64,000 nt of DNA, from contig WRBO01000005.1 in the NCBI GenBank assembly GCA_009784555.1, forward strand, positions 6,406 to 70,405, read 5' to 3'. Positions 7,901-58,460 of the stretch are shown here, piece after piece; position 1 is the stretch's first letter, and the number at the start of each line of letters is the position of its first letter. Below the pieces are notes generated by a model. It did no database searches and had not been told where the DNA came from. It worked only from the letters and a program-made list of their open reading frames with translations. Source of the stretch: Bacillota bacterium (GTDB taxonomy: Bacteria > Bacillota > Clostridia > Christensenellales > UBA1242). A program made the position numbers and the translations under genes.

Positions 7901-10900
7901 CCGCCGTAAACATTAACGCAACCGAGTTGACACGTGTGCCATCAATCACCAGCGATGAGGTATGTGGCAGATTGCTTGGGTTAACAATGGCATAGTTAAA
8001 GCCACCGCGGTTATTACGCGCACCTGTGAAACGCTCTGTTAATTGCTCTTGGGATGCCAATGCAAATGTTATGTGTTGTGGGCGGGCGATGAACAATGGC
8101 ATTTCATAGTCCTCGCTTTGGCGAATCATTGGGAAATCAAAGCCCATGGCCGCCGTAAACGCCGCCTCGGACAGACGTCCAACCTGGCCATTTTGTATTG
8201 GAACATTGATATTTTGGAAATTTACAAAGAAGTCGTCTGCATTAAAAACCTCGTCAGTTGCAGGCATTGACGAAATGTTAGAGCGAGCCGCGACCCAGTT
8301 CGACATGTTACCACCAGTTGCGCCGGTTACCGCCGCACGTCCATAACGCGCGCCGATAAATTCGATGGTTCGGCTGCCGCCCGGCATTGCCCCGCCCGGC
8401 AAGGCCGTCGACGCGTTAAATCCAACTGGTTGGTTTTCCGTTATTATTAATGCGGGTGCGGCAGGTGCCCCAGTTGCGGTTACCCAATCAACCTGGGTCG
8501 GTGCCAAAATTGCATACGTCAATACGAAAGATGCGTATTGGAACCCAACACCCGTGTTGTTGTGGGTCGGGTTGCTGTTGTTTATTCGGTTAATTCCAAC
8601 CTTTGGGGATATAACCATTGCATTAGTCCCGCCAAGAGCAAATGCATCTTGAGGGTGGGTGTTCATCCTGAAGTAGTTGTAACTGTAGGCTGCAACGACA
8701 TCAACGTTGGCTGTTTGGTGCAATTCGCCGATAAGTCCGCCGATGATTGGACTGTTACGTTCACCCCCATTCATATAGTGAATAGACAAGGCACTGAACA
8801 CACCTTCGACACGACTCCTGCGCCCTGGGCCGTTTGCCTGGCCCTCTGTTCTTGGGTTTTCTTGGACACCTATTACCCCACCGACGATTACGTTGTTACT
8901 GCCCCGTGCACCGAAGATAAAGATATCTCCCCGGTATGGTATTCCCATAACGGTATGCGTTGTGTTTGTGAAGACACTACTTGCAAAGCTGTGGAATATA
9001 TCTCCGCTGTTGATACCTACAACACCGCCAATAACAGTACGCGGAACGTGCGCGGCCTGTTCAGTTGTGAAGTTTGCCAAGTTAATATTCGCATCACGAC
9101 CGACAATCAAGCCCGCATAGAATGGGTTGTTCGTCCAATCCAAGTGTTGGTTCAACATTGTGCGCGGAATAAAGGTTGTTAGAATTGCATTCAGTTGCTC
9201 GCGCAAGACTGGGTTGATGAAAAAGTCAAAGTAGCTGTTACGTACAGTTCCCGTGTTACGTCCCACAATTCCGCCCAACACACCACGGGCATAGATTGCA
9301 GAGGTGCTGTATGCACTGTTCACCGTGCCCATGTTCAAACCGACCAATCCGCCAACCAATCCACGTGTAGCATTATATAAAACGTTTTGTGTTGAGATTT
9401 CTTCTACCAACCCCTCGTTACGAGCAACTACCCCGCCAACGTTTTTATCGACATCGTTACGGACGATGTTTTGCGCACTGATTATAAGTAATGCGATTTC
9501 ACTGTTTAATGCAACGTTATCGGACAGGACGCCACCAGCATTACGGCCGCGAATTGTCCCGTTTGACATATTGCGTCCCACAAAACCACCCAAGTTGATG
9601 TTAAACACGGTGCGTGCCCCAGCAACATGGTTTGCCTGTTCAGAGCCGAACGACACGGCCATGGCACCAGTAACATTTAGAAAGTACCTCTCGGTTACAT
9701 ATCCCATGTTAATTCCAGCAATTGCGCCCCAGTTCAAATCGGTGTGCCCAGACAATGTAAATTGACCAAAGTTAACTTCCACCGTAACATCGGTAATTGT
9801 TCCCATGTTCACGCCAGCAACAACACCAAAGTTCAGAGTTCGATAGAATTCTTGATATTGTGTAATTGGACTCCTGTTGTACATTATGTTTACCAACACA
9901 TTTGTAAAGGCAATCCCATCCACCAAACCGCGAGTATGGTCAATTTCACCAAAGCCATTCCAGTCGCCCAATCGCCCAAATAGACCAAAGTTTTCCTCGG
10001 CACTGTGCCCCACACCTACCAAGGACATTGTTTGCCAGTTCGTCGCCGATTCAAATCGCATGTTTTGCAATTCGTAACGCGCACTTAAATCTCCACCCGC
10101 AACCGCATACGTTCGCGTACCGATGAATTGACCAACAAATTGATTAATTGGTTGCAATATAACATCGTGAAAATCAATATTATCAACCAAGCGGAAGTAT
10201 CCATCAATTACTTCGCCGCTGTGACGATAGTGTCTGTAACGCCCCGACGGCAGGTCAACATAACGGTCAAAAGTATATCCAAAGTGTAACAGGAATTCGT
10301 CGCGGTTTGAAATCATAAACTGGCCTTCGCCGCTTCGTTGGTCAAATATAAAGATGCTGAACCGTAAATACGTTGCAGGCAGTAGTAACTCACCCTCGCC
10401 GTTATTTGTTCGACGGATACTGTCAAATGCGAAAATTCGTAATACTACTGGTAAATCAACATTTATTCCAACGTTACTTCTGTGCGCGGTTATTACACCT
10501 GCTTCGGACACCGAGACAATTAAATTCCCCGCCCCGTCACGGACTTCGGTAATTATCATTCCGTTTTCGTCGTATATTGTTGTGCTGCCGTCACTGTTTC
10601 TTTGTTCAAACGCAAAGCCGATACGCGGGTTGTGTGCATTCGCAGGGAACGTGTTCAAGCGAACCGCACGTGTAGCCGGCCCGTCAGTAATAACCATGTT
10701 CAGGGAATTTCCAATATCCAGGGTATTAATCATTTGGACGGTGCTTGCATCAACAACACGCACAAAGAAACGCATCGGTGCATTGAATGTGAATTCCATA
10801 CGGAATGTTCCGCCCGCATACGTGTATGTTTGGTGAATATCAAACGCAACAAAGATGAAATCACTTGTTGCCGTCAGACCATGAATACGGTACTGACGAG

Positions 10901-13496
10901 AGCCCAGGGTATCTACATGAACACTGCTGCCTGGCCAATTTGGGTTTATGTGAACATCTACATCGGATTCTGTTCCGCGGGCAAAGGTTAAGTCTAGACT
11001 GAAATCCACAAAGTTCCCTGGCAACGGTAGCCCCGCAAAATGCGAAACCGTCCCGCGGGAAAATAACGTTTCCCAATTTCGGTCGAATTCCGCACTGATT
11101 AACGGATTAATGACCTCGAGATATATTATTATCATGGTTGACGACAATGCCGACAAAACACGTGGGTTATGTGCATGCAGGTCAACTATCAACTGCATTG
11201 TGCCTTCTGTTCTTGGTGTAAAGGTGAAGTTTTCCGTATCAACATCCAATCCCGCGGTCGCCGTTAATGTTGCCCAAACAGACGCATGGGACGGTAATGC
11301 CGAGAGGTTCAATTGATATACACCATCAATGCGAAGGAAAACACGTTCGATTTGATTTACAATGCCAACCTGTTGCATTCGTGTTTCAAATACCTGGCCG
11401 CCCGTTACATTTTGGATGTTCATGCCCAGGCTGGCCAAACGCTCTTGAACCAATATACGGACATCAACGGACATGCCGCTGATATATTCTATTGTTACAC
11501 CGTGATGCACACCCAAGCTGACCTGGTTTAATAAATGCGCATACATAGGTTGCAGGAATCGCGGGTTAACCTCTAGCAGGAACCTCAACCGTCCATCTGG
11601 TTCAAAACCAGAAGGATGGTGTACAACAAACATTGGAATGCGCTCGACAACTATTTCCCCAACCATGATTGGGATAAAGGCACTCTCCCCCAAACGGTCG
11701 GCGAAATACGTTACATCCGCCGCGTATCCGATATCGGTACGGACAAAGAATTCAAACGCACCATTTACATAACCGCGCACAGGGAACAAAATGTCAATTG
11801 GGTTGCCCGCCGCATCCTCGATAGACATTTCCGAAACGGCATGCATCGCACGCAATGGAATGTCTCTGTAGGCCAAAGGCGTGCCATCTGGCCATGCCGC
11901 AACCGACCGAACACGTAAAATCAAATCATTTGATTCAATCAAATCCAATACATGCATGCTTGGACGCATTGACATCGAAAAGGTTGCATAATACGGAATG
12001 CCTTGGGAAAAGTTCAGCGGAGACATAATGATATCAAATGCGGGGTCATGCACAGGACGCGTAGACCACGTAATATCAAACATAAACCCAATATGCACGT
12101 TTGCATGTGCAGGTGAGTTAATTAATTCAAATGTTAATCGGTTGTTATATTGGTGGTGGTTTGTTGTGTTTATATTAATTTGGTCACGTAAGTTCACGTT
12201 AAAATGAAATCTGTCTGTACGTGTCGGGGAATAGAATGCCAACATTTGGTCTAACTCTGTTCCGTTGCGGTGGAATTCCAAATTCTTTTCACCATCGGGG
12301 GCCAGGTCATGGAATATATTTCTGACCTCTACCCTGATTTGAACAAATTCATGTAAATGTGTGTCCCGCGGACGATTAAACAATATAGGGGTGTCTTGGC
12401 CCACATTAACAACCGGAAACACCATTACGGTTACAAAGGTTTGGCCCAAGCCATTTGCCTCTAGACGGAAGATATCTTGACTTGGGGTATCCAAGTGCGG
12501 AAAAACAACCGTTTCATCAAAACCAACCAAACGGTAATGAAAGTTAACGGTATGTCCAGGGCCAAAGTCACCCGCAAAGTTCGGGCGAATATCCCATCCA
12601 TCAACGGCAATACGATAGTCAATGAAATTTGTGAACTGGTTCGCGAATTCACCCTCGGACGGCGCGTTCAAAACCAAACTGGCGAATGTATTTCCAAGGT
12701 TATCAATCCGTGTCGGTGCATTTTCATTTGTTAGTGTTATGTCGCCAAAAGGTGCAAAGATGTAAACAGGAAAATCCAACGTCGCCCCAGTACGTGTCAA
12801 TGTCGCACGCACAGTTACCGGCCCAGCCAACGATGTCCAAGGAACAACCAAACGTTGTCCATCAATATGTGTTCCGCGGTTTTGTCCGATGATTTGGTAT
12901 GTTACTTCATTTTCGGTCGTATTGAATGTCAGGTCACCAACCGTCTGGGTTGCAAAGAAATTAAAATCGCGGCCCGAAAATGGAACATATACTGGCGGTT
13001 CATCATATGCGCCGCGTACAATTCCAAAGCGTACATCTTCTGCCATATTCATACTACGGGCCGGAACATCTACACGCACATCCAAATACATTGTGCGACC
13101 GCCGCCGCCAGACAAAACACGAATACGTGTGCGACCACCATTAACCGCGGTTATCGTCACACGGTTTTGATTTCCGCTTGAACCCGTGACGGCCGCCGTT
13201 GCGACACTGGGGTCAAGTGAATGGACAAAGACTCTTTCCGCCGCACTGTTCGGCGCACCCTCTACCCTGATGGTTACATGTGATTGGGGAAAGTTCCCTC
13301 CCGTTGGACGAGCGATGCCGTTGTTGTCTTCTATGTTCAATGTGATAACAATATTTTGGGTGGATGCGCGCAGACGCATGTCGCCATATATATCACCACT
13401 GCCACCAGCCAGTATAATTCCCAAGACAGCAGCAAACACCAGAACCAGAAGTCCAGCCAGAATTAATTTGTTACGACGGCTTAGTATCTGTGCCAC
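1944..13496 (-). CDS. Giant (3850 aa) N-terminally membrane-anchored surface protein with many GLUG-type repeats
   Basis: Uninterrupted 11.5 kb ORF with a GTG start preceded by GGGGGA. N-terminal TM segment LILAGLLVLVFAAVLGIILAGG. A Big_2-like segment (VTITAVNGGRTRIRVL). Dozens of repeats of the form (V/A)GG(L/I/F)(V/A)G.N.G.I.N(S/A). No C-terminal anchor. Confidence 0.85.
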   Translation of the reverse strand: MAQILSRRNKLILAGLLVLVFAAVLGIILAGGSGDIYGDMRLRASTQNIVITLNIEDNNGIARPTGGNFPQSHVTIRVEGAPNSAAERVFVHSLDPSVATAAVTGSSGNQNRVTITAVNGGRTRIRVLSGGGGRTMYLDVRVDVPARSMNMAEDVRFGIVRGAYDEPPVYVPFSGRDFNFFATQTVGDLTFNTTENEVTYQIIGQNRGTHIDGQRLVVPWTSLAGPVTVRATLTRTGATLDFPVYIFAPFGDITLTNENAPTRIDNLGNTFASLVLNAPSEGEFANQFTNFIDYRIAVDGWDIRPNFAGDFGPGHTVNFHYRLVGFDETVVFPHLDTPSQDIFRLEANGLGQTFVTVMVFPVVNVGQDTPILFNRPRDTHLHEFVQIRVEVRNIFHDLAPDGEKNLEFHRNGTELDQMLAFYSPTRTDRFHFNVNLRDQININTTNHHQYNNRLTFELINSPAHANVHIGFMFDITWSTRPVHDPAFDIIMSPLNFSQGIPYYATFSMSMRPSMHVLDLIESNDLILRVRSVAAWPDGTPLAYRDIPLRAMHAVSEMSIEDAAGNPIDILFPVRGYVNGAFEFFVRTDIGYAADVTYFADRLGESAFIPIMVGEIVVERIPMFVVHHPSGFEPDGRLRFLLEVNPRFLQPMYAHLLNQVSLGVHHGVTIEYISGMSVDVRILVQERLASLGMNIQNVTGGQVFETRMQQVGIVNQIERVFLRIDGVYQLNLSALPSHASVWATLTATAGLDVDTENFTFTPRTEGTMQLIVDLHAHNPRVLSALSSTMIIIYLEVINPLISAEFDRNWETLFSRGTVSHFAGLPLPGNFVDFSLDLTFARGTESDVDVHINPNWPGSSVHVDTLGSRQYRIHGLTATSDFIFVAFDIHQTYTYAGGTFRMEFTFNAPMRFFVRVVDASTVQMINTLDIGNSLNMVITDGPATRAVRLNTFPANAHNPRIGFAFEQRNSDGSTTIYDENGMIITEVRDGAGNLIVSVSEAGVITAHRSNVGINVDLPVVLRIFAFDSIRRTNNGEGELLLPATYLRFSIFIFDQRSGEGQFMISNRDEFLLHFGYTFDRYVDLPSGRYRHYRHSGEVIDGYFRLVDNIDFHDVILQPINQFVGQFIGTRTYAVAGGDLSARYELQNMRFESATNWQTMSLVGVGHSAEENFGLFGRLGDWNGFGEIDHTRGLVDGIAFTNVLVNIMYNRSPITQYQEFYRTLNFGVVAGVNMGTITDVTVEVNFGQFTLSGHTDLNWGAIAGINMGYVTERYFLNVTGAMAVSFGSEQANHVAGARTVFNINLGGFVGRNMSNGTIRGRNAGGVLSDNVALNSEIALLIISAQNIVRNDVDKNVGGVVARNEGLVEEISTQNVLYNATRGLVGGLVGLNMGTVNSAYSTSAIYARGVLGGIVGRNTGTVRNSYFDFFINPVLREQLNAILTTFIPRTMLNQHLDWTNNPFYAGLIVGRDANINLANFTTEQAAHVPRTVIGGVVGINSGDIFHSFASSVFTNTTHTVMGIPYRGDIFIFGARGSNNVIVGGVIGVQENPRTEGQANGPGRRSRVEGVFSALSIHYMNGGERNSPIIGGLIGELHQTANVDVVAAYSYNYFRMNTHPQDAFALGGTNAMVISPKVGINRINNSNPTHNNTGVGFQYASFVLTYAILAPTQVDWVTATGAPAAPALIITENQPVGFNASTALPGGAMPGGSRTIEFIGARYGRAAVTGATGGNMSNWVAARSNISSMPATDEVFNADDFFVNFQNINVPIQNGQVGRLSEAAFTAAMGFDFPMIRQSEDYEMPLFIARPQHITFALASQEQLTERFTGARNNRGGFNYAIVNPSNLPHTSSLVIDGTRVNSVALMFTAGPVIPSAVTANRYYLDDLFSVEISPLIASRRMFISIEGGSGIAELGRNTVGGVPRYFLNLRRTGSFQVVAISTRTEEGQSVLGRLAVDVIPGVTTQTVSRDILGMIARRSMLTDDPNNFTHNFEVQKGTTFSLLAAVDNQTWQVEGSYIFESGAPRPYQNGSPIYFHEAPLNDEPIIFRFRPFISWGGNIYHLDSLVIEIEVEVYAGAIYLELFQDGTTIDGSTASVYSGRFVTDILPTVHRNVAIGSLTELQRAEQLLSLTNFAFSAEGTTHQMFGLPVAGTPNPEITRTVIEITENDRAFNLVFELHVRPIEVFTIYVQSPGGLVARDFGYREYNFDIYMRLEIREEVYNNFLASVDVSQYRPPVAIPHGISGTIHMAERSIDRAENELRPLLYDSADVEVVAQQLQSVNFQHYANTITVPGSISEFILPPNQPQSMNVYTERDGTGGILKVYAHPFYSGIDQFTLRSIPVNQIIGEIDGENVYKYWDIMFIQMVFNPYTGYFENYPGVPLVLGPDGMPVVPDTGAPGEILPETFAFHQVSTVRDTAGGRMFSWEGVYYIHTVLRERNEQANPTQITQGQVFHIEAEFITLGDWENPLTREFELFALDRPGLNFEFDNVPGRRASQAVGTTSTFTVNTTGVINVDWGSGAETEMTIFRGGSNIDPYQYVTLTHIPNTQSYQVTIAPSVNMVGATIFIEFSYELEQSGLILQMTTTLEIDVVLMRVDGLYLAGRRGNTIHMNTPSQYNVELAINASHHSGHDAPELAMMISNEIARVQYEINRDPRVEWTGRSATGGWMLNVNWDEVNEFYHNEVGPTSTNRDALNFFLGSSRTSGIKFVSPSVRASRTNVLSVRMSFELIGGLYQIRVATGMNITADFNVVSVPSSAEDNPVIIRTAQELRDAASIVDGHFILMPDDGVLTLNGWEPLEWRAASLDGNNTRIILNSFNIPEETTGPINIGLFSTVHHGSLIKNVNLVLPFFPASGRSDLRVDLTHLPQNATVRVGAFAGVNQGILTNIAVLSGGASVGTPNAPGFQEGQFTRNEDGNMVADFNRSNFDQSLVFPGLQGSARSRLAVFMANSTMDLRVGGLVGINMRAGNNYGVISNSRVLIDMFVGREGAVADETQTNVGQARVAGFAAQNDGFIVSSFFRDGNIINRAWPSSGAAFSWTAGFVAQNGQQGIVRGSYVMGATSGLASNGQVTRGVIRSTFATAGFVFQNAGLVEDGYVNILLPEGTFRSGFVENNTAQGVIRNSIVQNPNPGGDMGAYFVFARAPLAGGFLGTLTNNRFMNQPGFIATNDFADGARFRGFTNPIDINEFEGFSISAMYEDRNPNVWRMTPHGPRLVGADHIAVSIRVMGDTLLPTGHPEIIYHRSHAYGTRYNPIVIWTGDQFNRHIYLASGAEGRDRDFEQSAAQVRDDWEDNVFMGYMRLVSNISVRAATGGTATQGGLSEFGGVLHTYKVTFQGELDGNGLGITDISLVATEAVATGLRSVGLFSRLTYATVKNVNLSFVPSPGAEYSIAAASAPFVGGLAGIAVNSNIVDVNVINQTNHVNTRILGFNIVGGVVGVSVNFDYDTQTAGGSIVRTAHTYKIENVHSNVPVMTFVRHQAEHIDLTFASAIGGLTDLGYMQHDLTRLGIAGGVVGMVTHDVGNIIDRGLFMRDIDGNAVTNAHPMRADFTNVRMIGNFRNPNGNVGFGIVAEGEVVGSLIGVIGSEISVRGAEYLMNNTLAVTHNHLRAKFYAGGIVGINFGRLDGATVSLFGQMNLNIQSNAGARYIFFGTPAVSRTYGMFVGGIAGFNSGTINNATLDSPMTAEGTGGTHPIRTSQKMSVGGIVGENAGGTISNSRVERTILGGFMLGGVVGMNRNGGALINNHLRHTTGTGAYTIFNVTGAQGVNSIWGGQADGVQINETFRGTPEMMSAFGTGPIADGGRGSDMVTFTGGIVGYIQGADPIVMGGTRTNEIVINNRSIFEFGGARNRA

Positions 13497-13597: not shown

Positions 13598-15226
13598 CTA
13601 TCTCCTGTCAAACCTGACTGTGTTTGATGTATGAACTTCTATGACACGATTCACATTCCCGCCCATAACACGCCAAGGCCGTCCGCCCGCCGATGTCATA
13701 TTCGGAATCTCTACCCCAATCTGTGTATTGCCCGCAACACCACCCTCGATCCACCCGGTAAAATCACGTGCCCCAGCGGTGGTAAAAACCTCTATATTGA
13801 ATGCTTGGAACGGATATTGCGGCATAACCGCAGCCAGTGCCGAGATACGAATGTTTCCCCCGCTACTGCCTGGAGGGGTGCTGCCGCCGTAGTATATTCT
13901 GTGTCTGCCGACCGCAACCGTACGAAATTCGACGATGATTTGTGCCCGTCCAACGGTACCAACCGAGATATCCACGATACCTATCACATTTGTCGCAAAA
14001 ATATTGCCATCAAAGCCAACAAAATTTAAGGACGGTGTACCCGAAGCATTCCGCGCAAACGTAACATTGGTTGGGCCGTAGCGATTTTCAACGGTTATGT
14101 TTCCACGTGCCCCATTTGGACTTGTAATTGGCCCAGAATTATTTCCAAGAGTCAAATTCGCACGCTCTGTTTCCGCACGCACATCGCCCATTGGGCGCGG
14201 AACGCTCAAACTTCCTTGGATACTCATGTAATCCAATTCTCCGCCGATTTCGGTTACGGTTACTGTGCTGGCATTGGCATGAATATAGGCGTCTTGGGTT
14301 ACCCCCAAAAGATTTATCCGCGCCGTGCCAGTGCGACCATGAAAGTTACCATTAATATGTCCACGTCCCGTTAAAGTACCCATGGCTGAACGATAAAAAA
14401 CATCCCCCCACACAGTACCAAAAGACAATGTGACGTTTCGGCCATCTGGTACCGATATAATCGGCTCTGATGGAATGATACCACGCACACCAACATCGCC
14501 TACTGTGACATTCCCGTAATTTCCATTTATGACCAAGCCTTGGCTAACCCCCGTCGGCGCACTTACCGTAGCCGAACCGTTCACAACCAAGTTTTGCAAA
14601 TCCATATGGAACGGATGTGCATCTGTTCGTGCATTTGGAAAAACAAATCTTCCTGTCGAGTTGCCGCCAATAATAACTGAACTCACCACCATGAAATCTG
14701 CATCTTGGTCGGCGGCAAAAGTCACATTACCCCCCCCAGTATTAAAAACAAAACTATACGGACGCGGCGTCCCCCCTATTGCATGGTCTTCGGCCGTGAT
14801 GTTCAAAACCAACAATGCCCGTCGGTTAATCGTCCCCTCGGGCGCGTGAACAACAATTCGATAATACACCTCGCCATTCGGCCGCAATATTTGGTGCCAT
14901 TCAATGTGTGTACGGTTAATACCATTAAAAGACAATCCACGCGCATCCTCGAATAATGTTATTGTTCCTTCGTCACGCTGTCCTGGTTTTCGCATACGAA
15001 TTTGTATATCTGTATTTTGTGCATTAATCATTATGCGGCGATGGTTTAATACCTCTCGTATTTCTTCACCCGCATATCGTGTATATGAGTTTCGCTGGGT
15101 CACACCCGTTAAACCAAAGATACTTAAATTAATTGGCGACCAAAACATAAATACCAGGACGAATCCGAATATCAGAAAAATGGCCAGAACAGCCATTAAA
15201 AAGAATATCGCTATCCGACGCCCCAT
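13598..15226 (-). CDS. Membrane-anchored beta-strand-repeat protein (DUF4097-like adhesin fold guessed)
   Basis: 542 aa ORF with an N-terminal TM (IAIFFLMAVLAIFLIFGFVLVFMF). The rest is Gly/Asn/Val/Thr-rich short-strand repeats (GNVTV, GNITVEN). It sits directly upstream of the giant gene on the same strand. Confidence 0.55.
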   Translation of the reverse strand: MGRRIAIFFLMAVLAIFLIFGFVLVFMFWSPINLSIFGLTGVTQRNSYTRYAGEEIREVLNHRRIMINAQNTDIQIRMRKPGQRDEGTITLFEDARGLSFNGINRTHIEWHQILRPNGEVYYRIVVHAPEGTINRRALLVLNITAEDHAIGGTPRPYSFVFNTGGGNVTFAADQDADFMVVSSVIIGGNSTGRFVFPNARTDAHPFHMDLQNLVVNGSATVSAPTGVSQGLVINGNYGNVTVGDVGVRGIIPSEPIISVPDGRNVTLSFGTVWGDVFYRSAMGTLTGRGHINGNFHGRTGTARINLLGVTQDAYIHANASTVTVTEIGGELDYMSIQGSLSVPRPMGDVRAETERANLTLGNNSGPITSPNGARGNITVENRYGPTNVTFARNASGTPSLNFVGFDGNIFATNVIGIVDISVGTVGRAQIIVEFRTVAVGRHRIYYGGSTPPGSSGGNIRISALAAVMPQYPFQAFNIEVFTTAGARDFTGWIEGGVAGNTQIGVEIPNMTSAGGRPWRVMGGNVNRVIEVHTSNTVRFDRR

Positions 15227-18489: not shown

Positions 18490-18859
18490 CGTTTTGCCCG
18501 AGGCGAAGCCGTGTGATGCACCCGCAGGGTTAACATTATAGTTCGGGCCGAGGCCGCAGGCCGAGCGTTTGGCCCGAAGCGAAGCTTGGGGGGGGTTTTC
18601 TATTTCTTGTTTTTCGCTGGGGGGGGGTTCTCCAGTTGGAGGCGATATTTAATTTTCAATTTTCATTCATCCAAAAACATGGATGATGGCGAGGCGCGCC
18701 AGGTAAGTCTTTCCGCACATCGAGGACTCCCCCATATCTGGCGGATATAACACATCTGATTTATCCGCAGATGAAGGAAAGAGCTTGCCTAGGCAGCCGA
18801 TGCCTTTGCACCTTATAGTAACATGGGATTTTTGGGCGTCAAGGGGGTTGGTGACATTT
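18490..18859 (+). ncRNA. Structured repeat element, copy A (candidate novel ncRNA or structured repeat)
   Basis: The 5' half is near-identical to 38591-38745. The 3' half is homologous to the reverse complement of 42975-43190. Twin G tracts are G8 at 18588-18595 and G9 at 18619-18627. Conserved hairpins include CATCCA-aaaaca-TGGATG (18668-18685). A long helix pairs 18701-18714 with 18776-18790 and covaries with copy C. Confidence 0.5.
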
Positions 18860-19285
18860 TTAGTCGGATGTTACTTTTTCGAGGATGTCTTTGAAAGTTT
18901 CGATTTCTTGTGCAGTTACCCTGTTGACCCAAAACGGTGCCGCTTGCCTGTATTTCGATATTTTATCGTCAAAGTATGCCTGGCCCTTTGGTGTTAGAAT
19001 GATTTTGAAGTTCTTGCCGATGTTATCCGATTTGTCCCGTTGTACTATGCCGTTCCTTTCAAGGTCGGCTATGGTTCGTGAAACCAATCCTTTGTCCGTT
19101 GAGGTCATTTCGGCAAGTTCAGCCATCGAATAGCCTTTTCCGTCTTTGATTATTGGGACGATTACCCGTAACTGCCCCCTGGTGACTTCTTCACTTTCGA
19201 GAAGTTTATATGTACCCTCTATCCGTTTTATAAGTTTTTTAAGCCGTACAACAATATCCTCGGCCATTTCATACTTTGCTTTCAT
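18860..19285 (-). CDS. MarR family transcriptional regulator
   Basis: 141 aa winged-HTH pattern (YSMAELAEMTSTDKGLVSRTIADLERNGIVQRDKSD). It is the last gene of the ABC operon. Confidence 0.8.
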   Translation of the reverse strand: MKAKYEMAEDIVVRLKKLIKRIEGTYKLLESEEVTRGQLRVIVPIIKDGKGYSMAELAEMTSTDKGLVSRTIADLERNGIVQRDKSDNIGKNFKIILTPKGQAYFDDKISKYRQAAPFWVNRVTAQEIETFKDILEKVTSD

Positions 19286-20948: not shown

Positions 20949-23900
20949 TTATTTGACCCTCATGCGGTGACGCATTGTGAAGAATAGACCGACACCCACA
21001 ATTAAGAAGCCGACGACACCCACAATGACCATGATTGCAACCATGTTCAGACCCTCGCGGATGACGAATGATTCGGCGAAGATTGTAGCACCGCTGGCTA
21101 CCTCTAGCCTTATTTGATATGAGCCGACCTCGATAAATGGAAATCCCGCCAGGATGTTCGGTGAGCCCGCGTGCATGACGATTCGGTGAAATTCCTCTCC
21201 GTCACGTGTTAGTATCAGTTCCGAGTCGCCGAAGAGTTGGAAAATCAAATACGGGTTGTATCGGATTATGAATACGTCTGTGGTTGTGCTGCCGAATGGG
21301 TGGTTGCTCTGGATTACTGGTTGTTGCATTGGCATTATCATAATTGTAAACGACCGATAGATTGGTGGGCGGATATTGCCCTGGGCCACGCGCATTGTTA
21401 CGATGTATTGGCCACTGCGCCCTACGCCCGCGCGCAGGGATATTTGTGTCAGGTGTCCCTCGGGGAACAGGTGGCGTGCATCCGAACCGTTCAATGCCAC
21501 ACCCACGATTTCGATGTTTGGGGCGCCAGGGACGAAGAAACTCTCCATATGTTCGGTTGGGTTTACCAGTTGAACCATGAAGTCAATTCGCAGGCGGCCA
21601 GCAGGAGTCAAGTTATAAACGTATTCAACGGTAAAGCGATATAGCCCCGGGTCGGTGAAGTTCCAGAAGCGGCGTTCATGTTGACTGGTTGCCCGGAAGT
21701 CCTCTATTACCATGCCGTTACGTGTAACATGCATTTGCGAGATATACATGTGCAGGCCAGGCAAGCTGTTTGATGTGAATGGGATTTCCATCACGTTTAT
21801 ATTTATTTCGTTGTTGAACACCATTCCATCAATGACCGATTCCCCGTTTACCAAGATTGGTGGGCGGGTCAAGTTAATCAAGGTAAAGTGTTCGACCGTA
21901 TCCGTGTCTGTTGTGCCAGGGATGACATAGGTGAATATCCTGTGGTTTCCCGCCCAGTCCATAATTCGGAATGTAATCAATCCGTAATCGTGCGCGGACA
22001 GGCGCAATTCGTCCCCGACGAACAGACGTCCCACAGGGCGGCCGTTGAATGAATAATCGGCAAAATACAGGTTGCCAGGGTGTTGGTTGTGGCGGGCGCC
22101 CCCAGGTGTTTGCAGGGTTACAATCAGCCCAGCCGCGCCCAATTGGTTAAACAGAAGGTAATGCGGCACAGGCAGGCCCGCACCCTCGGCCGGGAAGGCG
22201 TTTGGACTCTCGACATTTATGGATACGTTTGATAACTCGCTGCTCCATATTGGTGTTACGGCCAGGTACATGCGACTGCCCGTTAGGTCGGATTCCAGGA
22301 TGTATATGTATGTAAAGACACTGTTCCCTATTATATCTTGGCCAGACAATTCGACCTGGGGGTCGTCCATGTTTATTACACGGCGCGGATAGTTCAATGA
22401 CGGCACGATTTCCAAGCGGTCTTGCCATTCTTCTTGGTTGTTTTCGACGACGATGAAATAGCTTGGGATACGGCGTTGTTGGAATGTGTTGCCGACGGCT
22501 ATGTTTAGAATGAATGGCTCGGGACTGGCAATTAATTGGGTACGGTCATAGCGCGGGTTTGATTCGCTCTCGGGTTCCCAATCCGCAAAGTCAGGGTTTT
22601 CGGTGTTAAAGAAGACCTGGTACGTTGTGTTGTCGACGTCCGTGATTGTGAATTCGTATGTTGAAACAGCCCATGCATCGTTCATTACGGTTATCACGTA
22701 TCGGCCCGCGTTCGTCAGGTTGAATCGTGTTTGACCGCGGCGCACGGTACGAGTAGTTGTCAGCAGGCGGCGGTTAGTTTCCGATTCGTCCAGTGTAGGG
22801 TCAAAGTTTGGGTTTGGGAATGTACGCGCGTATGTAATTGTAACGTTGAACAGGGTGCTTGGGTTGATGAAGCTGACGGATACTATGCCGTCGACCGAGC
22901 CCATTGCGATGTCCTCGGACACGTCCCCCCCGTTCAGGTTCGAGAATATCATTTCAGGCAGGTTGATATAAAACACCCATTCTTGGTCAAAGATTACGTG
23001 GCCCGTGCCACGGCTGACCAAGACTACCCGCCAATGTGATTGGGCGAAGGCGGAAGGCAGGCCAAAATGTACCGTCATCATATTTTCGTATGGGGTGAAT
23101 GTCATGTTTTCGGCACTGTTGATAAATTGGCCGTTGCGGTAAACACGTAGCTCGTGAACGTTCGAGGTAAAGGATATTTCCACGCCGCGTTCGTCACCCG
23201 TATGGTGCAGTAATCGGTTCTGTACAACGACCGGTTGTGTTCCACCCAGGAACGCAAAGCCAAATTCATTGCCCCAAATTCCGTTGTGTTCGGCGACGAC
23301 TTGGCGGCGGAATGGGTCGGTGACGGTTATGCGCAGTTCACGTGATGCCCCGTTTGGAATGATGACCTCGCCCGTGTGGGGGATGAATTCCTGGCTGACA
23401 TGTGTGCCGTCGAACATATCAAACAGGCCCAGGGTCATGAAGTTGAAACTGCGGAACATTGGGTGTAGTAGATGCCAGTTCACGATGGATACCGTGAGAG
23501 AACCGTTATCCCCCTCGGCCATTGCAATCATAGGCATCAGAGTATTGTTAGTAATTTGGAATACATCCACGTTCCATACATGAAAGCGGTTGTTTATTGT
23601 TAGGGTCATGACACCCTCGCCCAATGCGCCTATCCAACCGTTCAGAACATCGACCAAGTCGGCAGGGCGCGCGTTATTGAATACCATCGGCGTTTCGATA
23701 AAGTGATGGCCGCCCAAGGTTATTCCCGTTTGCGCGGTTTGATTAAATCGGCGGAAGACACGGTTTTCGTATCGAATTTCAAAGTAAGGGTTTTGGTTCC
23801 AGAACTCGGTCACATCATTTACGCGCAAGCCTTGGCCGAAGACACGAACCTGGTCCGCTATTAGGTTGTCGCCGTCAACCACGCCCGCCGTACCGATACG

Positions 23901-26900
23901 GTCGATGTATCCCAGTCCGCGTAGTTGGATAAAGTACTCGCGAGTGTTGCCGGCCTCGTCCCTTTCGGTTATTCGGAAGAAACGCGATTGACCCGGTTGC
24001 AATCCAACACGTTGGGCGAACGGTGCCCCACCGTATTCAAAGTGGATTTCACCCGTCATAGGGGTTAGGGCGGGTGTGACCTCTACATATGATATCGAGA
24101 AAGCCTCTAAATCTGGGTTCAGGATAGGGCGACTAAATATAAAATTATTTGGTACCGCATAGATAAACCTATCTTCGTTCAGGTCATTTGTGGTGAACCC
24201 CGCACGTTCGTTCCAGAGTCTGTCCAAGGCTTGGATATTTCGGAAGTTGTGTTGCGGCGGCGTATTGTCGATGACAATCGAGTGTGATATCGGCGGAACC
24301 ATCGGGTCATCGGTATAGAGGATGACGCCGAATACATCGTTCTCGGCCCATCCCATGTTGGTCAGCATGTATTCAACGCGCACCACCCCGCCGTCGACCG
24401 TTTGGGTCAACGATGGAACGTTTGTAATTGTTGGGTGGTTTGGGGTGTTTAATTGTCCGCGGGTGATGCGGCTGTTTGTTACGTCGGCGAAGAACCTGTT
24501 TGGGTCGGATTGGGTGTACACAAAGCGCAATGTTTCGCCCGTTTGTAATTGTGTCGAGCCCAATGAAACACGGTTAGTTCCGCGATAGAATGCACCTGGG
24601 CTGCCTCCTCTTTCGATTTCAAAGAGGATTTCACTCCTGTTTGGTTCGTTGATACGTTCGCCAAAGCCATAGAGTTGCCATCGCATACCGCCACTGCCGT
24701 CTGTGAATGATAGCCTGTACATTCCTGTGTCTGTGAACGGGATGGATGCGTTGTTTGCGTTACGGTCGCGCAGGGTTGTAAAATCACCGCCCGCGATATC
24801 CCGTTGTTGTACCACCAAATTCAAACGCAAGGATTGAAAATTAAAGGATGTTTGCGGAATACGCGCCCCGAATTCATTTGTGGTATAGAAGTGCAGTTGC
24901 ATGATGCTGGACCCGAAGGCGACCTCCTCTCCGTCCACAATCGCCGTGTGTCCGAACTTTGTTCCGAATGTTGGCATTCGCACGGATGCGGTCGAGTTTG
25001 TTTGCAACACGACATCGTGGCCAGGAACCATGCGGGTGTTATTTATTCTTTGAAAGTTTGTAATGTCAGCAGTTTTCAGGCCAAAGTCGATTTCAATCGC
25101 ACTGTCGAAAACCCCTGGGTTCGCGATAATTGGTGTATTATCAACGATAAAGAAATAGTTTCGTTCGATTTCGTCCAATCGGTCGGCGGGCACCGTGACC
25201 GGGTTAAATCGGCGGGTGATTACATAGACACCAGGCAAGGTTCCCTCGTTACGGTCGGCACGGTTGATTTCGCGATAAACCCAATGTTCGGCCAAGTTCG
25301 TGTTGGCGGGGCGTTGATACAAACGCTCGGTCGATGTGACATCGCGCGCGAACGGATAGTTCGGGTTGACGTGGCGGGTGCGGATGACCTCGTCATCCAC
25401 CGTTTCCTCTGTATAATAAAATCTTTGCCAATTTAATTCGTGGAATGCCATGTCGACCGTATCAACAACAAATTGGTTGTTCATTCCGCCGACGATAAAT
25501 TCACTCTGTAAAAATGCAAATGTCGCAAATTCGCGGTTGGAAATTCCGCCCGGGCGAACGACCGAGGCCGTTTCGCTCCATTCGTCGCTGGCCGCATCGA
25601 CCACCAGTTCGGGCACATCGTCCTCTAGGATTGTTCCACGGCTCATATCGAAATTCACGAAAACGTAATAGAACGATATGTTGCCCAGCGCGTCCTCGGT
25701 ACGGAAGATATAGAAATTTTCGCGGTTCAGATGAACATAGTGGCGGTTGACGTTCGCGGGAACCTCTATGTCCCAATCGGTGCCCTCCAATGCCAAATGT
25801 TCCCCCAATGGGCGGTTGCGGTCAAATACCGTTTGGAAACTGGTTTCCGCCATTTCTAAACTTATCCCTACGTTATCGATTGGAATTGCGAAACCATAGC
25901 GTGTTTCCCATTCCTCGCGCGGGAAGAGCGTTCCGATTGAATTTACACGCGGTACGATGGCCGTGCCGAACATGCCCGCGTTCGCCAATATTTCATAAAG
26001 GGTTTCGGTCGTGTACAATGTTGTGCCAAGGCCGCGGACATGGAAATCCAAGGCGGCGGACATCGCAACGTCCGAGCCGATGATTTTATTTTGTCCGAAC
26101 CCGACCCACGTTGCCTCGGTCGTCATGTTCATGTGGTTCAAATCGTCAACCATCGGGTTTTGGGCAAAGCCCTGGGTTGAGTTATCAATTACCAATGTGA
26201 AAATAGACGTATTTCCCGCCATGTCCATGATGTGGAATATGTACAATCCCGCCGCACGGAAAGTAATCGGTAAACGATATCCGATATGGGTGTTGTTAAC
26301 GTCGCGTATCATAACGGGGCGCAGTTGCAATGGCTCGGCCCCCGTGCCCATCATCGTATATGGCGTGGCCAAGTTCGCCGCGGTATGGTCATCCGTTTGC
26401 AGGAAACTGGTAAACCTGTTTTCAAATGCGTGAAAGAAAACCTGGGCACGGTGAAAACTGACACCGCTTGGTTTTAATCCCCAACGCAATCCGATTTCAA
26501 AGTTGATGTCACCCGCACCCCCCCATATGGCAAAGTCAGGGTGTGTGTTTGGAACGACGAATTCGCGCCCGCCAACGTTTTCCAATTGGAATGAATTGAC
26601 CTTGGAGTTATCGACGATGACACTGAATTGCGCGCTGGCCTGGCCCAATGCCCCGTAAAAAACACGGAAGGTATATATTCCGTCGAAATAACGGCCCTCG
26701 GCATCCAATTGAGTTGCCAGTTGCGTTGCGAAATTTTCCAAATCAAAAGACGGGATTGTGCGAATATGTTGTCCGTCAAAGGTCGTGATGACCAATTCGA
26801 TACGCGGGCGCATCATAAATGGTGACAATTCGGAATACGCCGTTGCCCCGTCCATGAATACGAGGAATGAGCCACTTAACGTAACGCGGCGGTCAACAAA

Positions 26901-29606: not shown

Positions 29607-29638
29607 ACGGCACCTCCCCGCCCGATTTTGGGCGAGGC

Positions 29639-29667
29639 ATTATACACGGATTTCCACCAATTTGCAA
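29639..29667 (-). promoter_or_regulatory. Near-consensus sigma70 promoter dedicated to atpG
   Basis: Minus strand reads TTGCAA (29667-29662), 17 nt, then TATAAT (29644-29639). It is followed by a 5'-UTR hairpin CCUCGCCC-aaaauc-GGGCGGGG that overlaps the GGGGAGG SD. Confidence 0.6.
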
Positions 29668-29678
29668 TAGTTAATTTT

Positions 29679-31703: not shown

Positions 31704-31761
31704 TATTATAAGGAAAACCCCGCACAATACCAAATAAAAAATTTACACCAACGAAACAAAA

Positions 31762-31778
31762 ACCACCCGCATGGGGTG
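31762..31778 (-). terminator. Intrinsic terminator after the VirB2-like gene
   Basis: Hairpin CCACCC-catgc-GGGTGG followed by UUUUUGUUU on the minus strand. An A-run on the other side makes it potentially bidirectional. Confidence 0.6.
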
Positions 31779-31800
31779 GTTTTGATTATGGCTTTGCGTT

Positions 31801-38590: not shown

Positions 38591-38997
38591 CATTTGGCCC
38601 GAGGGCGTTAGCCGTGTGATGCGCACGCAGTGCAAACCGAATAGTTCGGGCCGAGGCCGCAGGCCGAGCGTTTGGCCCGAAGGCAAAGCCCTGGGGGGGG
38701 GGTTTTACTTTTGCGTTTTCCGTTGGGGGGGTTTTCTAGGGGGCCTCCTTGCAGGGAAAACTAACTTTTCGGGCCGAAGCCGAGCGGAGCGAGGAGCGTT
38801 GTACAGTCACGATTGGTTGTGATGCATTGTGCACACTTGCCAGGAGAAATGACCGCCATGTTTATTTAGTTTTATAAAAGCACACAGGGCAGGCCAATTT
38901 CTCTGGTCCTCGGGTGCGAAAAGTTGTTGTTCCCTCGTCGGCCCTGTACCTTACAGTAACATGGATTGATTTTTATTCAAGGGTGTTACTGACAATT
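38591..38997 (+). ncRNA. Structured repeat element, copy B
   Basis: 38591-38745 matches 18494-18640, including an identical 42-nt block ATAGTTCGGGCCGAGGCCGCAGGCCGAGCGTTTGGCCCGAAG. Twin G tracts are G10 (38693-38702) and G7 (38725-38731). The middle is unique, closed by a long-range helix ACAGGGC...GCCCTGT (38884-38890 with 38941-38947). The shared 3' tail is CCTTACAGTAACATGG...AAGGGTGTTACTGACAATTTTA. Confidence 0.5.
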
Positions 38998-39275: not shown

Positions 39276-39306
39276 TGTTCTAGTAAAACTACAAAGGGGG
39301 CACACG

Positions 39307-39435: not shown

Positions 39436-39454
39436 CTTTTCGCATCCGAGGACA

Positions 39455-42927: not shown

Positions 42928-42950
42928 GTATATGCGATTTTCATGGCAAT

Positions 42951-43252
42951 AAAATGTCAGTAACCCCCTTTACATATATGAGTTCCATGTTACGTTAGGG
43001 TGCAAAGGCGTCGGCTGCCTACGAGATGCTGTTTTTAGTCTTCTGCGGATACACTGTGGATGTTGCTAACTGTAGGTGTACCAGTCCTCGAAGACGAAAA
43101 ACACATCTCGGGCGCGCCTCGCCACATCCATGTTTTTGGATGAATGAAAATTGAAAACTGAATATCCTGCACACCCTGCGGCCCCTTGGAAAACCCCCCC
43201 CAGTTAAAAACGCAAATTCAATAACCCCCCCCAAGGGAATTTACTGACATTT
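42951..43252 (-). ncRNA. Structured repeat element, copy C (inverted relative to A and B)
   Basis: The reverse complement aligns with 18583-18859. Shared blocks are the twin G8 tracts (C8 on + at 43194-43201 and 43225-43232), TTTTCAATTTTCATTCATCCAAAAACATGGATG, GGCGAGGCGCGCC, TCGAGGACT, TATCCGCAGA, TAGGCAGCCGA(T/C)GCCTTTGCACC and GTAACATGG. It is bracketed by inverted repeats at 42951-42970 and 43233-43253. Confidence 0.5.
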
Positions 43253-43524: not shown

Positions 43525-43538
43525 ACGGAGGGGAGAAA

Positions 43539-53039: not shown

Positions 53040-53064
53040 CCCCGTATCCACAGCGGGGTTTTTT
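53040..53064 (+). terminator. Intrinsic terminator
   Basis: CCCCG-tatccaca-GCGGGG followed by T6. The same 19-nt hairpin recurs inverted at 63651-63669. Confidence 0.7.
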
Positions 53065-53110
53065 CATTAGTTCGTGCGCCCTGCGCACATTTATGACACG
53101 TGGTCCGATG
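53059..53110 (+). repeat. About 50-nt direct repeat R1 (3' flank of uvrC)
   Basis: TTTTCATTAGTTCGTGCGCCCTGCGCACATTTATGACACGTGGTCCG aligns with 54793-54842. Its hairpin is GTGCGC-cct-GCGCAC (53074-53088). Confidence 0.7.
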
Positions 53111-53140
53111 TAGGTTTTTGTATACAGCAATAATATCCCC

Positions 53141-54799
53141 CTACTTCAGCCCGGGGATTGTTCGTTTGGCGCGGAGGTTTCGGTGGAAGGTGTTGGCGAA
53201 GCGGTGGGCCTCGTCCCGAACCCGTTGGAGGAGGCGGAGGGAGTAGCTGCGTTTGGAGAGTACGAGCGGAGTACTCTCCCCCGGTTTGAAGATTTCTTCG
53301 TTTTCCTTTGCCAGGGCGATGAAGTTGATTTCAGAGTTTCCCGCGACATCCATAACCGAGGATAGTTGGCCCTTGCCCCCGTCGATGACAATTAGGTCGG
53401 GGGCGATGCCGAATGAGATGTCGGGGGTTCCGATGCGGGCGAGGCGGCGGGTGATGACCTCTTGCATAGAGAGGAAGTCGTTGTTACCCATGCCGTGTTT
53501 GATTTTGAAGCGGCGGTAGAGTTTTTTCTCGGCCACGCCGTTTATGAAGACGACCATTGATGCGACCATATCCGTGCCGTCCGTGTGCGAGATGTCGTAA
53601 CATTCGATTTTTTTCGGCGGGTGGGTAAGGCCGAGTACAGTGCCCAGTTCGTCCACCGCGCCCACCGTGAATTGTTCGCGGAATTTGATTTTTTCAATGG
53701 ATGTGTCGATGTATTCATCCGCGTTGGTTTTCGCCATGTCGAGGAGTTGACGTTTAAGCGCGACCTTTGGGTTGAAGATGGTACAGCCGAGGGCGACAGC
53801 AACTTCCGTCATCGGAAATTCCGCGACGATTTGTTCGGGCACCACGTTTTGTTGATAATATTGCATTACGAAGCCAGAGAGCATGTCTTCCTCTGACTGT
53901 ACCCCCGCATGTTGTTCCGAGAAGTTTTGTATCCCGATTAATTTGCCCGCACGTACGGAGAGTACCGACACAACGAACACGTCCCCGCGGATTGCGTATG
54001 AGAAGACATCCGCGTTCAGGTCGCGCGCGACGTGGGTTATCGTGCGGTCACGCAATTTATCGAGGAAGTTCATACCGTTACGATAGCGGATTGCAATTTC
54101 AAATTGTTCAAGGGCGGCCGCGTTTTCCATTTTTGATTGGAGTTTTTCGCGTGCGCCGAATTCCCGTTCCCCGCGCAAAAAAGATTTAACATCGTCGATT
54201 ATTTTTAAGCATTCTTCGCGCGTTACCCGTTTGGCACAAGGGGCCAAGCACCGCCCGATTTGATGGTTTATGCAGGGTGTTTTTTTCGCAAATTCGACTT
54301 TGGAACATGTGCGTAATGGAAAGATGTCGAGAAGAGTGTCGAGTAGTTCGGATGCCCAGATGCCGTTGAAGTATGGCCCGAAGTATTTGCCGCCTTTTGT
54401 TAGTTTGCGGGTGACCTCTAGATACGGCCAGTCGCCGTCAGTTACCTTTATATATGGAAAGGTTTTGCTGTCTTTTAATAATATATTGTAGTGGGGTTGG
54501 TGTTTTTTGACCAAGTTGGCCTCTAGCCCCAGGGCGTCGTTTTCCGTTTTGGTGATGAAGTAGTCGAAGTCGCGCACCCGTTCCAGCATTGCGGTTACTT
54601 TTGCATCGTGACTGCCGCTCTTGAAGTAACTGCCCAATCTTGCGCGCAGGGCCTTGGCCTTGCCAATGTAGATGATGTGCCCCGCCCCATCGCGCATGAG
54701 GTAGACCCCAGGTTTTGCGGGGACGAGGGCGAGTTTTTCGTGGATTGGCCCTTGGGGGGGGTTATTGATTTTTGATTTTTCACTGGGGGGGGTTTCCAT
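53141..54799 (-). CDS. uvrC: Excinuclease ABC subunit C
   Basis: GIY-YIG domain (PGVYLMRDGAGHIIYIGKAKALRARLGSYF), a UVR domain and a C-terminal (HhH)2. The only plausible starts are the ATG at 54799 (METPPSEKSKINNPPQG...) or upstream to 54871. Either way both C8 tracts fall inside the coding sequence. Confidence 0.9.
   Translation of the reverse strand: METPPSEKSKINNPPQGPIHEKLALVPAKPGVYLMRDGAGHIIYIGKAKALRARLGSYFKSGSHDAKVTAMLERVRDFDYFITKTENDALGLEANLVKKHQPHYNILLKDSKTFPYIKVTDGDWPYLEVTRKLTKGGKYFGPYFNGIWASELLDTLLDIFPLRTCSKVEFAKKTPCINHQIGRCLAPCAKRVTREECLKIIDDVKSFLRGEREFGAREKLQSKMENAAALEQFEIAIRYRNGMNFLDKLRDRTITHVARDLNADVFSYAIRGDVFVVSVLSVRAGKLIGIQNFSEQHAGVQSEEDMLSGFVMQYYQQNVVPEQIVAEFPMTEVAVALGCTIFNPKVALKRQLLDMAKTNADEYIDTSIEKIKFREQFTVGAVDELGTVLGLTHPPKKIECYDISHTDGTDMVASMVVFINGVAEKKLYRRFKIKHGMGNNDFLSMQEVITRRLARIGTPDISFGIAPDLIVIDGGKGQLSSVMDVAGNSEINFIALAKENEEIFKPGESTPLVLSKRSYSLRLLQRVRDEAHRFANTFHRNLRAKRTIPGLK
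54749..54795 (+). repeat. Twin-G8 core motif, copy D (antisense to the uvrC 5' coding region)
   Basis: CCCTTGGGGGGGGTTATTGATTTTTGATTTTTCACTGGGGGGGGTTT, with G8 at 54754-54761 and 54785-54792. It is nearly identical to the reverse complement of 43191-43237. Confidence 0.75.
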
Positions 54800-54842
54800 T
54801 AATCCGTGGGCTGTGCCCACATTTATAACACGTGGTCCGTGG
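54793..54842 (+). repeat. About 50-nt direct repeat R2 (5' end of uvrC)
   Basis: TTTCCATTAATCCGTGGGCTGTGCCCACATTTATAACACGTGGTCCG. Its hairpin GTGGGC-tgt-GCCCAC (54806-54820) carries compensatory changes relative to R1. Confidence 0.7.
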
Positions 54843-54998
54843 TTTGTTGAGTCTTGCACCTTTTTCATCACTTTACCATATCATGGTTTTTTTCATAGTC
54901 AAGAGAGTTCCTGACACTTTTTGAAGAATTGAAACATGTTGTAAATCCCGCCTTGAATTGATATACTATGAGGTAATTGTTGAAGGAGATTTTTTTAC

Positions 54999-58444: not shown

Positions 58445-58460
58445 TAAGAGGAGGTTCAAT

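Follow-up and report, generated by a model that had tools for sequence, protein, structure and literature searches.

In this study we describe a short DNA element, consisting of two long guanine homopolymers separated by a T-rich spacer (twin-G element), that occurs four times in a 64-kb stretch of a Bacillota genome (contig WRBO01000005.1, positions 6,406 to 70,405; guanine-plus-cytosine (GC) content 47.9%). We refer to this whole stretch as the window. The twin-G element is very probably the core module of an interspersed repeat family, non-coding, multi-copy, and lineage-specific, of one uncultured Firmicute from the termite gut. Taken together with a role in punctuating transcripts, this reading is the one that we favor, with more modest assurance, as the best explanation as a whole. 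Twin-G units lie in intergenic DNA or at a gene edge throughout, and assemblies break or join differently at the clusters in which they reside. The four copies in the window are as follows (positions in the window; nt, nucleotides).

18583..18630, forward strand: twin-G copy 1, CTT-G8-TTTTCTATTTCTTGTTTTTCGCT-G9-TTC, with G8 at 18588-18595 and G9 at 18619-18627 (nhmmer E=3.7e-11)
38688..38735, forward strand: twin-G copy 2, CCT-G10-TTTTACTTTTGCGTTTTCCGTT-G7-TTTT, with G10 at 38693-38702 and G7 at 38725-38731 (profile and pattern match)
43191..43237, reverse strand: twin-G copy 3, G8/G8, read on the forward strand as C8 at 43194-43201 and C8 at 43225-43232
54749..54795, forward strand: twin-G copy 4, G8/G8, with G8 at 54754-54761 and G8 at 54785-54792

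All four sites had been pointed out in an earlier note on this DNA, and each was present with the tract lengths given there. That note had also regarded tracts of at least 8 G/C as rare by chance, which was borne out. The pattern GGGGGGGTTWTN{8,12}TTTTYNNYTGGGGGGG matched exactly four sites in the window and none of 100 dinucleotide shuffles; moreover, seven G/C runs of at least 8 nt were observed in 64 kb against ~1.05 expected from base composition, and six of the seven are tracts of the four twin-G elements. At a threshold of at least 7 nt, which all eight element tracts reach, nine runs were counted and two further C7 runs were left uncounted. The spacing of the two tracts, described previously as constant, is near-constant: 31, 32, 31, and 31 nt from start to start in copies 1-4, with spacers of 22-23 nt that are 57-70% T. 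The seventh long run (C8 at 14730-14737) was considered as a fifth copy and rejected: it is a glycine run in an ordinary open reading frame (ORF) (...NTGGGNVTF..., E=3.3). A profile hidden Markov model built from seven copies found no further full, half, or decayed twin-G copy in the window.

Beyond the window, six copies on other contigs bring the total to ten in ~110 kb of one species; counting only the ~101 kb that were not chosen for carrying the element, the density is seven copies. A metagenome scan, whose matches were mostly G/T-only artefacts, contained at least three true copies among the matches listed: L117 (G8/G8), L139 (G9/G8), and L151 (G8/G9). L223, a contig of the ENA assembly that holds the window organism, carries a G8/G9 copy. 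L222, which extends the window leftward, carries a tandem pair of twin-G units 20 nt 3' of a canonical terminator: the first unit (G9/GGGGAGGG) has an interrupted, decayed second tract and is followed by a small hairpin (hairpin X, below) and then by a G6-N25-G6 unit. The GyrA encoded on L139 is 100% identical to that on a contig of the window organism's ENA assembly, the next best match being 76%, and hence the contigs carrying copies belong to the same species. Twin-G elements are found again, with their specific flanks, in assemblies from JGI, ENA, and Logan.

The two nearest sequenced relatives checked (L218 and L219, ~21 kb each) contain no twin-G element and no G/C run of at least 6 nt. 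Their UvrC proteins are ~68% identical to that of the window, their GC content is 40%, and their uvrC-ftsH spacer is without the element. The best named homologues of the window genes come from 'Firmicutes bacterium' and Christensenellaceae metagenome-assembled genomes, among which the nearest UvrC is only 68% identical. Contigs identical to the window were found in IMG sample 3300010369, taken from the P1 gut segment of a higher termite, Labiotermes labralis (PMC7800795). The window itself encodes housekeeping functions (uvrC, ftsH, ksgA, greA, pfk, metK, a tadA-like deaminase, spmA/B, and PSP1) and no tRNAs. Rfam returned nothing at gathering thresholds for the whole window, nor at E<=5 around copy 1. 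Viral contigs had no match to the twin-G element or to its neighboring modules D4, D5, and I3/I6 (below), and a scan of species-representative genomes with the pattern fixed at exactly G7 in the second tract gave ~110 matches, all unrelated (poly-G contig ends and tandem repeats). Two other ideas were set aside. An uptake sequence of the Neisseriaceae/Pasteurellaceae type is not supported, as there was no DNA uptake sequence (DUS) and one chance match to the uptake signal sequence (USS), and the host is a Firmicute. A Chi/KOPS-like polarity was not seen either: orientations along the contig run -,-,+,+,-,+ (and probably -), with no strand bias.

The consensus of the unit reads (C)CYT, G8-9, TTWT, ~15 variable T-rich positions, TTTTYNNYT, G8-9, TTTYC. 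Across the ten copies, tracts range from G6 to G10 (17 of 20 are at least 7 nt long, modal length 8-9), spacers from 22 to 25 nt, box spacing from 31 to 33 nt, and the total unit from 37 to 42 nt. Several T blocks of the spacer and both flanks of the unit are invariant among copies. Equal-length spacers are only 66% identical in pairwise comparison (34% divergence), whereas the tracts contain one interruption in a total of 162 tract positions; at the divergence of the spacer, the probability of at most one interruption in 162 positions is ~2e-12. The G runs are under constraint, and far more so than the spacer. The unit contains no inverted repeat, and its folding energy is unremarkable in both orientations (z of -1.3 to +1.4 relative to shuffles). 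In predicted minimum-energy folds, the C-strand core is unpaired between flanking hairpins.

The twin-G element is never alone: every copy lies within a mosaic of other small repeats. Read in the G orientation, the modules follow the order D4, twin-G, D5, hairpin X, I3/I6, and both order and orientation are kept in all copies. All five are found in L117 and subsets in the remaining copies. D5 is in L117 and is missing from copy 1 and L151 at the same junction, showing that modules are individually present or absent. The modules in the window are as follows.

18507..18579, forward strand: module D4, hairpin-rich and GC-rich, directly 5' of copy 1, 89% identical to the second copy
38610..38682, forward strand: module D4, directly 5' of copy 2
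18630..18641, forward strand: hairpin X (CTCC-AGTT-GGAG), immediately 3' of tract 2 of copy 1
18644..18860, forward strand: I3/I6 module (~230 nt), downstream of copy 1
42950..43166, reverse strand: second window copy of I3/I6, downstream of copy 3
18815..18842, reverse strand: promoter-like TTGACG-16-TGtTACTAT on the reverse strand of I3/I6, with an equivalent site in L151
54793..54848, forward strand: module D5, immediately 3' of tract 2 of copy 4; its hairpin is GTGGGC-TGT-GCCCAC
53049..53116, forward strand: second copy of D5, with hairpin GTGCGC/GCGCAC, directly after a canonical terminator hairpin (CCCCG...CGGGG-T6, 53040-53064)

D4 also lies 5' of the element in L117, and a related form is found in L223. 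The stem of hairpin X is retained with changes in L151 (CTCCCGTGGGAG) and L222 (CTCCCGCGGGAG). D5, ~70-85 nt long, also occurs in L139 and in L117, where it is inserted at the same spot. L220, which extends the window rightward, ends inside I3/I6, exactly before the position at which a twin tract is expected.

Several of these modules have features of their own. I3/I6 has five copies, of which three lie outside the window (L117 2948-3159, L151 170-400, and L220 19770-19955). On its reverse strand, a sigma70-like promoter (TTGACR-16-TGnTACTAT) precedes a predicted structured RNA of ~130-150 nt. Between two subtypes there are 5-6 compensatory base-pair changes, and Rfam gave no match. We regard this strand as a candidate new small RNA gene family that would read toward the twin tract. 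The D5 hairpin stem also covaries (GTGGGC/GCCCAC, GTGCGC/GCGCAC, GTGAAC/GTTCAC). D5 always lies immediately 3' of a G run followed by a T run, be it twin tract 2 or a canonical terminator, a placement suggestive of a small insertion element with terminator-like target sites. A canonical bidirectional terminator hairpin (AAACCCCG...CGGGGTTTTTT) occurs twice in inverted orientation (53024-53064 and 63644-63684, 83% identical); its presence in two copies means that even terminators belong to repeat families in this genome. Lastly, the motif GGGGGCCTCCTT(C)GC(A/G)GGGAAAA was found after copy 2 (38738-38765, forward strand) and at the 3' end of the PSP1 gene (43836-43861, reverse strand), the latter preceded by G6-N14-G6. 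It may represent a further small module, or a degenerate form related to the twin element.

Evidence that the family moves came from copy 4, the only copy that lies within an ORF. The relevant features are as follows.

53141..54868, reverse strand: uvrC (GIY-YIG and UvrC_RNaseH domains), apparently leaderless from the ATG at 54868
54746..54865, reverse strand: in-frame insertion of 120 nt, or 40 codons (VQDSTNHGPRVINVGTAHGLMETPPSEKSKINNPPQGP), between uvrC codons 3 and 4
54875..54902, reverse strand: promoter-like TTGACT-16-TGaTATGGT, ending 6 nt 5' of the uvrC ATG at 54868

The insertion consists of module D5 and the twin tract, here read as C8...C8, and contains no stop codons. Homologous UvrC proteins start M-x-K-I-(H/Q/R)-EKL, while that of the window reads MKK, 40 additional amino acids, and then IHEKLALVP. 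The uvrC ortholog on L218 is without the 40 codons, and the insertion is unique relative to all homologues compared. It is not flanked by a recognisable target-site duplication. Judged by this comparison of homologues, the insertion provides direct evidence that the composite of D5 and twin tract can insert into new sites. Since two C8 runs now lie within the uvrC reading frame, a change of +/-1 in either would frameshift the gene. The same leaderless layout, with a -10-like box (TATACT, TATAAT, or TATGGT) ending 6-8 nt 5' of the start codon, was seen for at least eight of the 51 called genes, suggesting that leaderless mRNAs may be frequent in this organism. These leaderless-type genes (on L220, L222, and L223, and at 54868 in the window) have no Shine-Dalgarno sequence, and the remaining genes use the canonical AAGGAGG.

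We propose that the family would spread and be reshuffled by insertion and by recombination among its modules. At the junctions themselves, contig L224 leaves the window sequence within the invariant core of I3/I6 (L224 1399 / window 43011). As a separate observation, contigs of different samples match at 99.97-100% identity as far as a repeat module and run on into different DNA beyond it, and other contigs end inside repeats. Such alternative joins at repeat clusters reflect either population-level recombination or rearrangement, or chimeric short-read assembly.

If the family has a function, the most plausible is strand-asymmetric punctuation of transcripts, which we put forward tentatively from sequence context. 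In the C orientation, the RNA (C8, an A-rich spacer, C8) is 37-42 nt long, contains 38-52% C and 0-10% G, and lies unpaired between hairpins in predicted folds. A patch of this sort, rich in C, poor in G, and unstructured, would be the kind of RNA on which Rho loads. The Rho utilization (rut) sites of one Firmicute Rho have been described as G-poor and unstructured, with more C than G, and can be as short as ~50 nt (PMC12350095); the twin-G core shares this composition and predicted lack of structure, over a segment of only ~40 nt. In all eight copies with known surroundings, the C orientation lies downstream of a transcription source, namely the reverse-strand promoter of I3/I6 (copy 1, copy 3, L117, and L151), a small gene (copy 2, L139, and L223), or the uvrC promoter (copy 4). 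In the same eight copies it lies upstream of the next gene's promoter, of a gene start, or of a convergent gene, and in copy 2, L117, and L223 the promoter of the next gene is 90-130 nt downstream. In the G orientation, the RNA has only a weak, G.U-containing hairpin between CCCTT and tract 1, followed by a U-rich run. This stem of 7-8 pairs, three of them G-C, was flagged in five copies and falls short of an intrinsic terminator. A further proposal, that the C tracts serve as anti-Shine-Dalgarno seeds of small RNAs, was set aside, as the organism's Shine-Dalgarno sequence (AAGGAGG) pairs poorly with C8.

Several observations weigh against this overall reading. No transposase, RAYT, or recombinase was seen in the ~100 kb examined, and neither terminal inverted repeats (TIRs) nor target-site duplications were found at twin-G elements. 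All copies belong to one species and most of them to one population, so that recent spread from a few source subfamilies could account for part of the constraint signal. With regard to punctuation, the orientation of the element relative to neighboring genes is not uniform, which makes the argument from context weak, and it is weakened again because a 3' end lies in about two thirds of all intergenic gaps in any case. The core is A-rich, not pyrimidine-rich overall, and is shorter than typical rut sites. A simple terminator scan performed no better than on shuffled sequence across the window, and it therefore cannot establish that canonical terminators are lacking near the elements; the question of whether elements fill terminator-less gaps was dropped, as the scan matches as many sites in shuffles. 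Our caution about punctuation reflects the statistical weakness of the context and this uninformative scan.

Other explanations of the element were also weighed. Of the earlier note's interpretation, the pairing of the tracts, their near-constant spacing, and their departure from chance were supported. The note had also suggested that two G8 tracts could supply four G3 runs for an intramolecular G-quadruplex (G4). G4Hunter scores of the core (1.46-1.77; 1.16-1.38 with 4-nt flanks; threshold ~1.2-1.5) are compatible with the proposal, but the canonical G4 motif (four runs of at least three G, loops of 1-7 nt) is not present: four G3 runs arise only if each G8 is split, and at 22-25 nt the central loop exceeds the canonical limit of 7 nt. 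In such a model, each G8 would provide two G3 columns with a 1-2-nt G loop, the T-rich spacer would form the long central loop, and the folded DNA or RNA (or an i-motif on the C strand) would block transcription, block an exonuclease, or trigger recombination. Stable quadruplexes with one long central loop have been reported for cases in which the remaining loops are very short. Conservation of the tracts with a varying spacer is what one would expect of a structure that needs no more than its G columns and a loose loop, and the element-bearing clusters coincide with the alternative junctions between samples; the junctions observed, however, lie in neighboring modules and not in the G tracts. 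The model also leaves the conserved T blocks of the spacer and the CCCTT and TTTYC flanks unexplained, and the G6/G6 copy would permit only two-tetrad or strained three-tetrad folds. The sequence is thus compatible with G4 formation, which is not evidence of folding, and we consider this explanation of the element unlikely.

Phase variation, in which slippage would alter tract length at high frequency and toggle adjacent genes, appears a little less likely again. G6-G10 homopolymers are slippage-prone (PMC6321876, PMC3532100), tract lengths vary among copies, and the C8 runs of copy 4 could shift the uvrC frame. The earlier note took the length differences as the signature of slipped-strand mispairing. 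The spread of 6-10 over ten copies does fit slippage over evolutionary time, but the differences are between paralogous copies and not between alleles. When the same locus was compared across samples, using consensus sequences of closely related populations in which minority variants are invisible, lengths were identical at copy 2 (ENA assembly L214), copy 3 (L224, from sample 3300010369), and copy 4 (G8/G8 in L001, L213, and L220). L139 and L223, possibly the same locus, do differ (G9/G8 versus G8/G9): over 6 kb the two contigs are 99.97% identical, beyond which (L139 6035 / L223 14418) they diverge completely, and their elements, although of the same spacer subfamily, also differ in the spacer and have different neighboring modules, so that many changes, and not simple slippage, separate them; a wholesale change of sequence or a chimeric assembly confounds this comparison. 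Furthermore, nine of the ten copies lie outside ORFs and outside the spacers between -35 and -10 hexamers, so a change in length there would have no obvious gene to switch, and a unit length held at 37-42 nt with a modal tract of 8-9 looks constrained rather than free-running. Compared with a contingency locus, the family has the homopolymer length and, save for copy 4, not the location in an ORF or core promoter. We infer that slippage on G6-G10 runs produces the differences in tract length as a side effect, and that these are not how the element acts.

A bolder combination, to which we assign about the same low likelihood as to phase variation, would make the twin tract a genome-wide cis signal of a new kind. 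It would act as a poly-C patch for Rho loading or RNA binding in one direction and as a G4-prone G/U block in the other, and slippage would render punctuation, and uvrC, stochastically switchable. If true, a gut symbiont would possess a family of portable contingency elements dispersed through its genome.

More doubtful still is that the two tracts are tandem, iteron-like boxes (Y-T-G8-TT-W/T-Y, ~31-33 bp apart) for a lineage-specific DNA-binding protein. The direct-repeat architecture, the near-constant phasing of 31-33 nt (about three helical turns, which would place both boxes on the same face), and the conserved flanks on both tracts are in line with this idea, and small XRE-family helix-turn-helix (HTH) genes, whose products would be possible binders, lie within 450 nt of five of the ten copies. 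Copy 3, for instance, is 16 nt after the stop codon of such a gene (43253-43456). However, the XRE genes are at variable distance and orientation and are mutually homologous only at the family level, relatives have such genes without the element, XRE regulators normally bind palindromes, and no candidate binding protein was identified. Beside the XRE genes we also noted a 154-nt repeat (39298-39451 and 43530-43683, 92% identical) that contains a 42-aa ORF (M[D/E]EVIRELLEILRGYMEDMATLRTRMNETIRRIAELVADEGK), each copy lying divergent beside a small XRE-family HTH gene (38998-39213 and 43253-43456, respectively); this 42-aa D1 peptide, looked up to collect further loci, was not on record.

Finally, an artefact of sequencing or assembly, such as poly-G arising from two-colour chemistry or the collapse of repeats, is suggested only by the fact that nearly all other database matches to loose twin-G patterns are G/T-only junk at contig ends, and it is effectively refuted, as the window copies lie mid-contig with complex, specific flanks and spacers, were reproduced by three assemblers and across different samples, and form a coherent family of which one member is an in-frame coding insertion.

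Elsewhere in the window, two giant ORFs of 3850 and 2562 aa (1944-13496 and 20949-28637, both on the reverse strand) have no Pfam families in the contig annotations, and a 542-aa ORF directly upstream of the first (13598-15226, reverse strand) has no Pfam domain at E<=1e-3. An ATP-synthase gamma-like gene (28731-29606) adjoins genes for a VirD4/TraG-type coupling protein (29679-31733) and a type IV secretion pilin (31801-32148), and this neighborhood (28731-32148) is possibly the remnant of a conjugative element. Two tandem paralogous small genes (58020-58582 and 58925-59166) encode lipoprotein-like signal peptides and belong to repeat families D2 and D6 (72-80% identical).

Returning to the reading of the twin-G element as the core of an interspersed repeat family, its closest likeness is to the STAR elements of Staphylococcus aureus, which are GC-rich direct repeats of short length with recurring AT-rich spacers at many intergenic loci, with a variable number of repeats per locus, species-specific locations, and an unknown function and mechanism of spread (PMC3532100). 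Twin-G elements are likewise GC-rich direct repeats with AT-rich spacers at multiple intergenic loci, and L222 has four G runs in tandem. By contrast, the STAR box is a complex 14-nt motif (TNTGTTGNGGCCCN) with spacers of at least 40 bp, whereas the twin-G box is a pure G6-G10 homopolymer with spacers of 22-25 nt, normally present as two boxes and embedded in a mosaic of fixed order; neither the STAR consensus nor its spacer length is found here.

REP/BIME of enterobacteria, NIME/dRS3/Correia of Neisseria, and BOX of pneumococcus are also multi-copy, intergenic, lineage-specific repeats made of ordered short modules. Such repeats often lie at gene ends and at assembly breaks, have been proposed to act in termination or mRNA stability, and are defined by imperfect palindromes or TIRs. 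Measured against REP/BIME- or MITE-type repeats, the twin-G family shows dispersed copies in a fixed module order and a signature of insertion; unlike them, the twin-G module has no palindrome or TIR, and no RAYT-type or other transposase was seen nearby.

Poly-G/C contingency loci of Campylobacter, Neisseria, and Haemophilus depend on slippage-prone G/C runs of at least 8 nt (PMC6321876). Twin-G elements have runs of this length, and copy 4 lies within a reading frame as a classical intragenic phase-variable tract does. A classical locus, however, belongs to a surface or restriction-modification gene and has one tract, placed in the ORF or in the promoter spacer, whereas twin-G tracts are paired across a conserved spacer, dispersed, and mostly outside genes and promoters, and no allelic variation in tract length was seen at copies 2-4 in consensus assemblies. 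Like rut sites, the C-orientation RNA has far more C than G, is G-poor, predicted to be unstructured, and flanked by hairpins, with the next promoter within ~100 nt in several copies; unlike the ~40-nt twin-G core with its A-rich spacer, rut sites form no repeated family and have no fixed motif. Loops are short and folding is proven in the Neisseria pilE G4 and the mitochondrial CSB II G-run terminator, and CSB II consists of two length-polymorphic G runs followed by T residues. The twin-G element resembles both in being a G-run element between genes and differs in its central loop of 22-25 nt and in that folding is predicted by score alone.

Literature searches for a twin homopolymer repeat found nothing specific, and to our knowledge no repeat family with a pair of long homopolymers as its conserved core has been described. 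We class the twin-G family as a modular interspersed intergenic repeat, that is, of a known kind, whose twin-homopolymer core is unusual. Repeats of this dispersed, modular, intergenic sort have been recognized in a few well-studied bacteria, mostly without a settled function. Here, one portable unit couples putative hypermutability, G4/i-motif potential, and extreme strand asymmetry; if functional, it would offer a compact, testable model for repeats that punctuate transcription. Even if it is selfish DNA, it is a repeat that has inserted in frame into an essential repair gene and left two slippage-prone runs there, and its clusters explain the fragmentation and possible mis-joins in assemblies of this organism.

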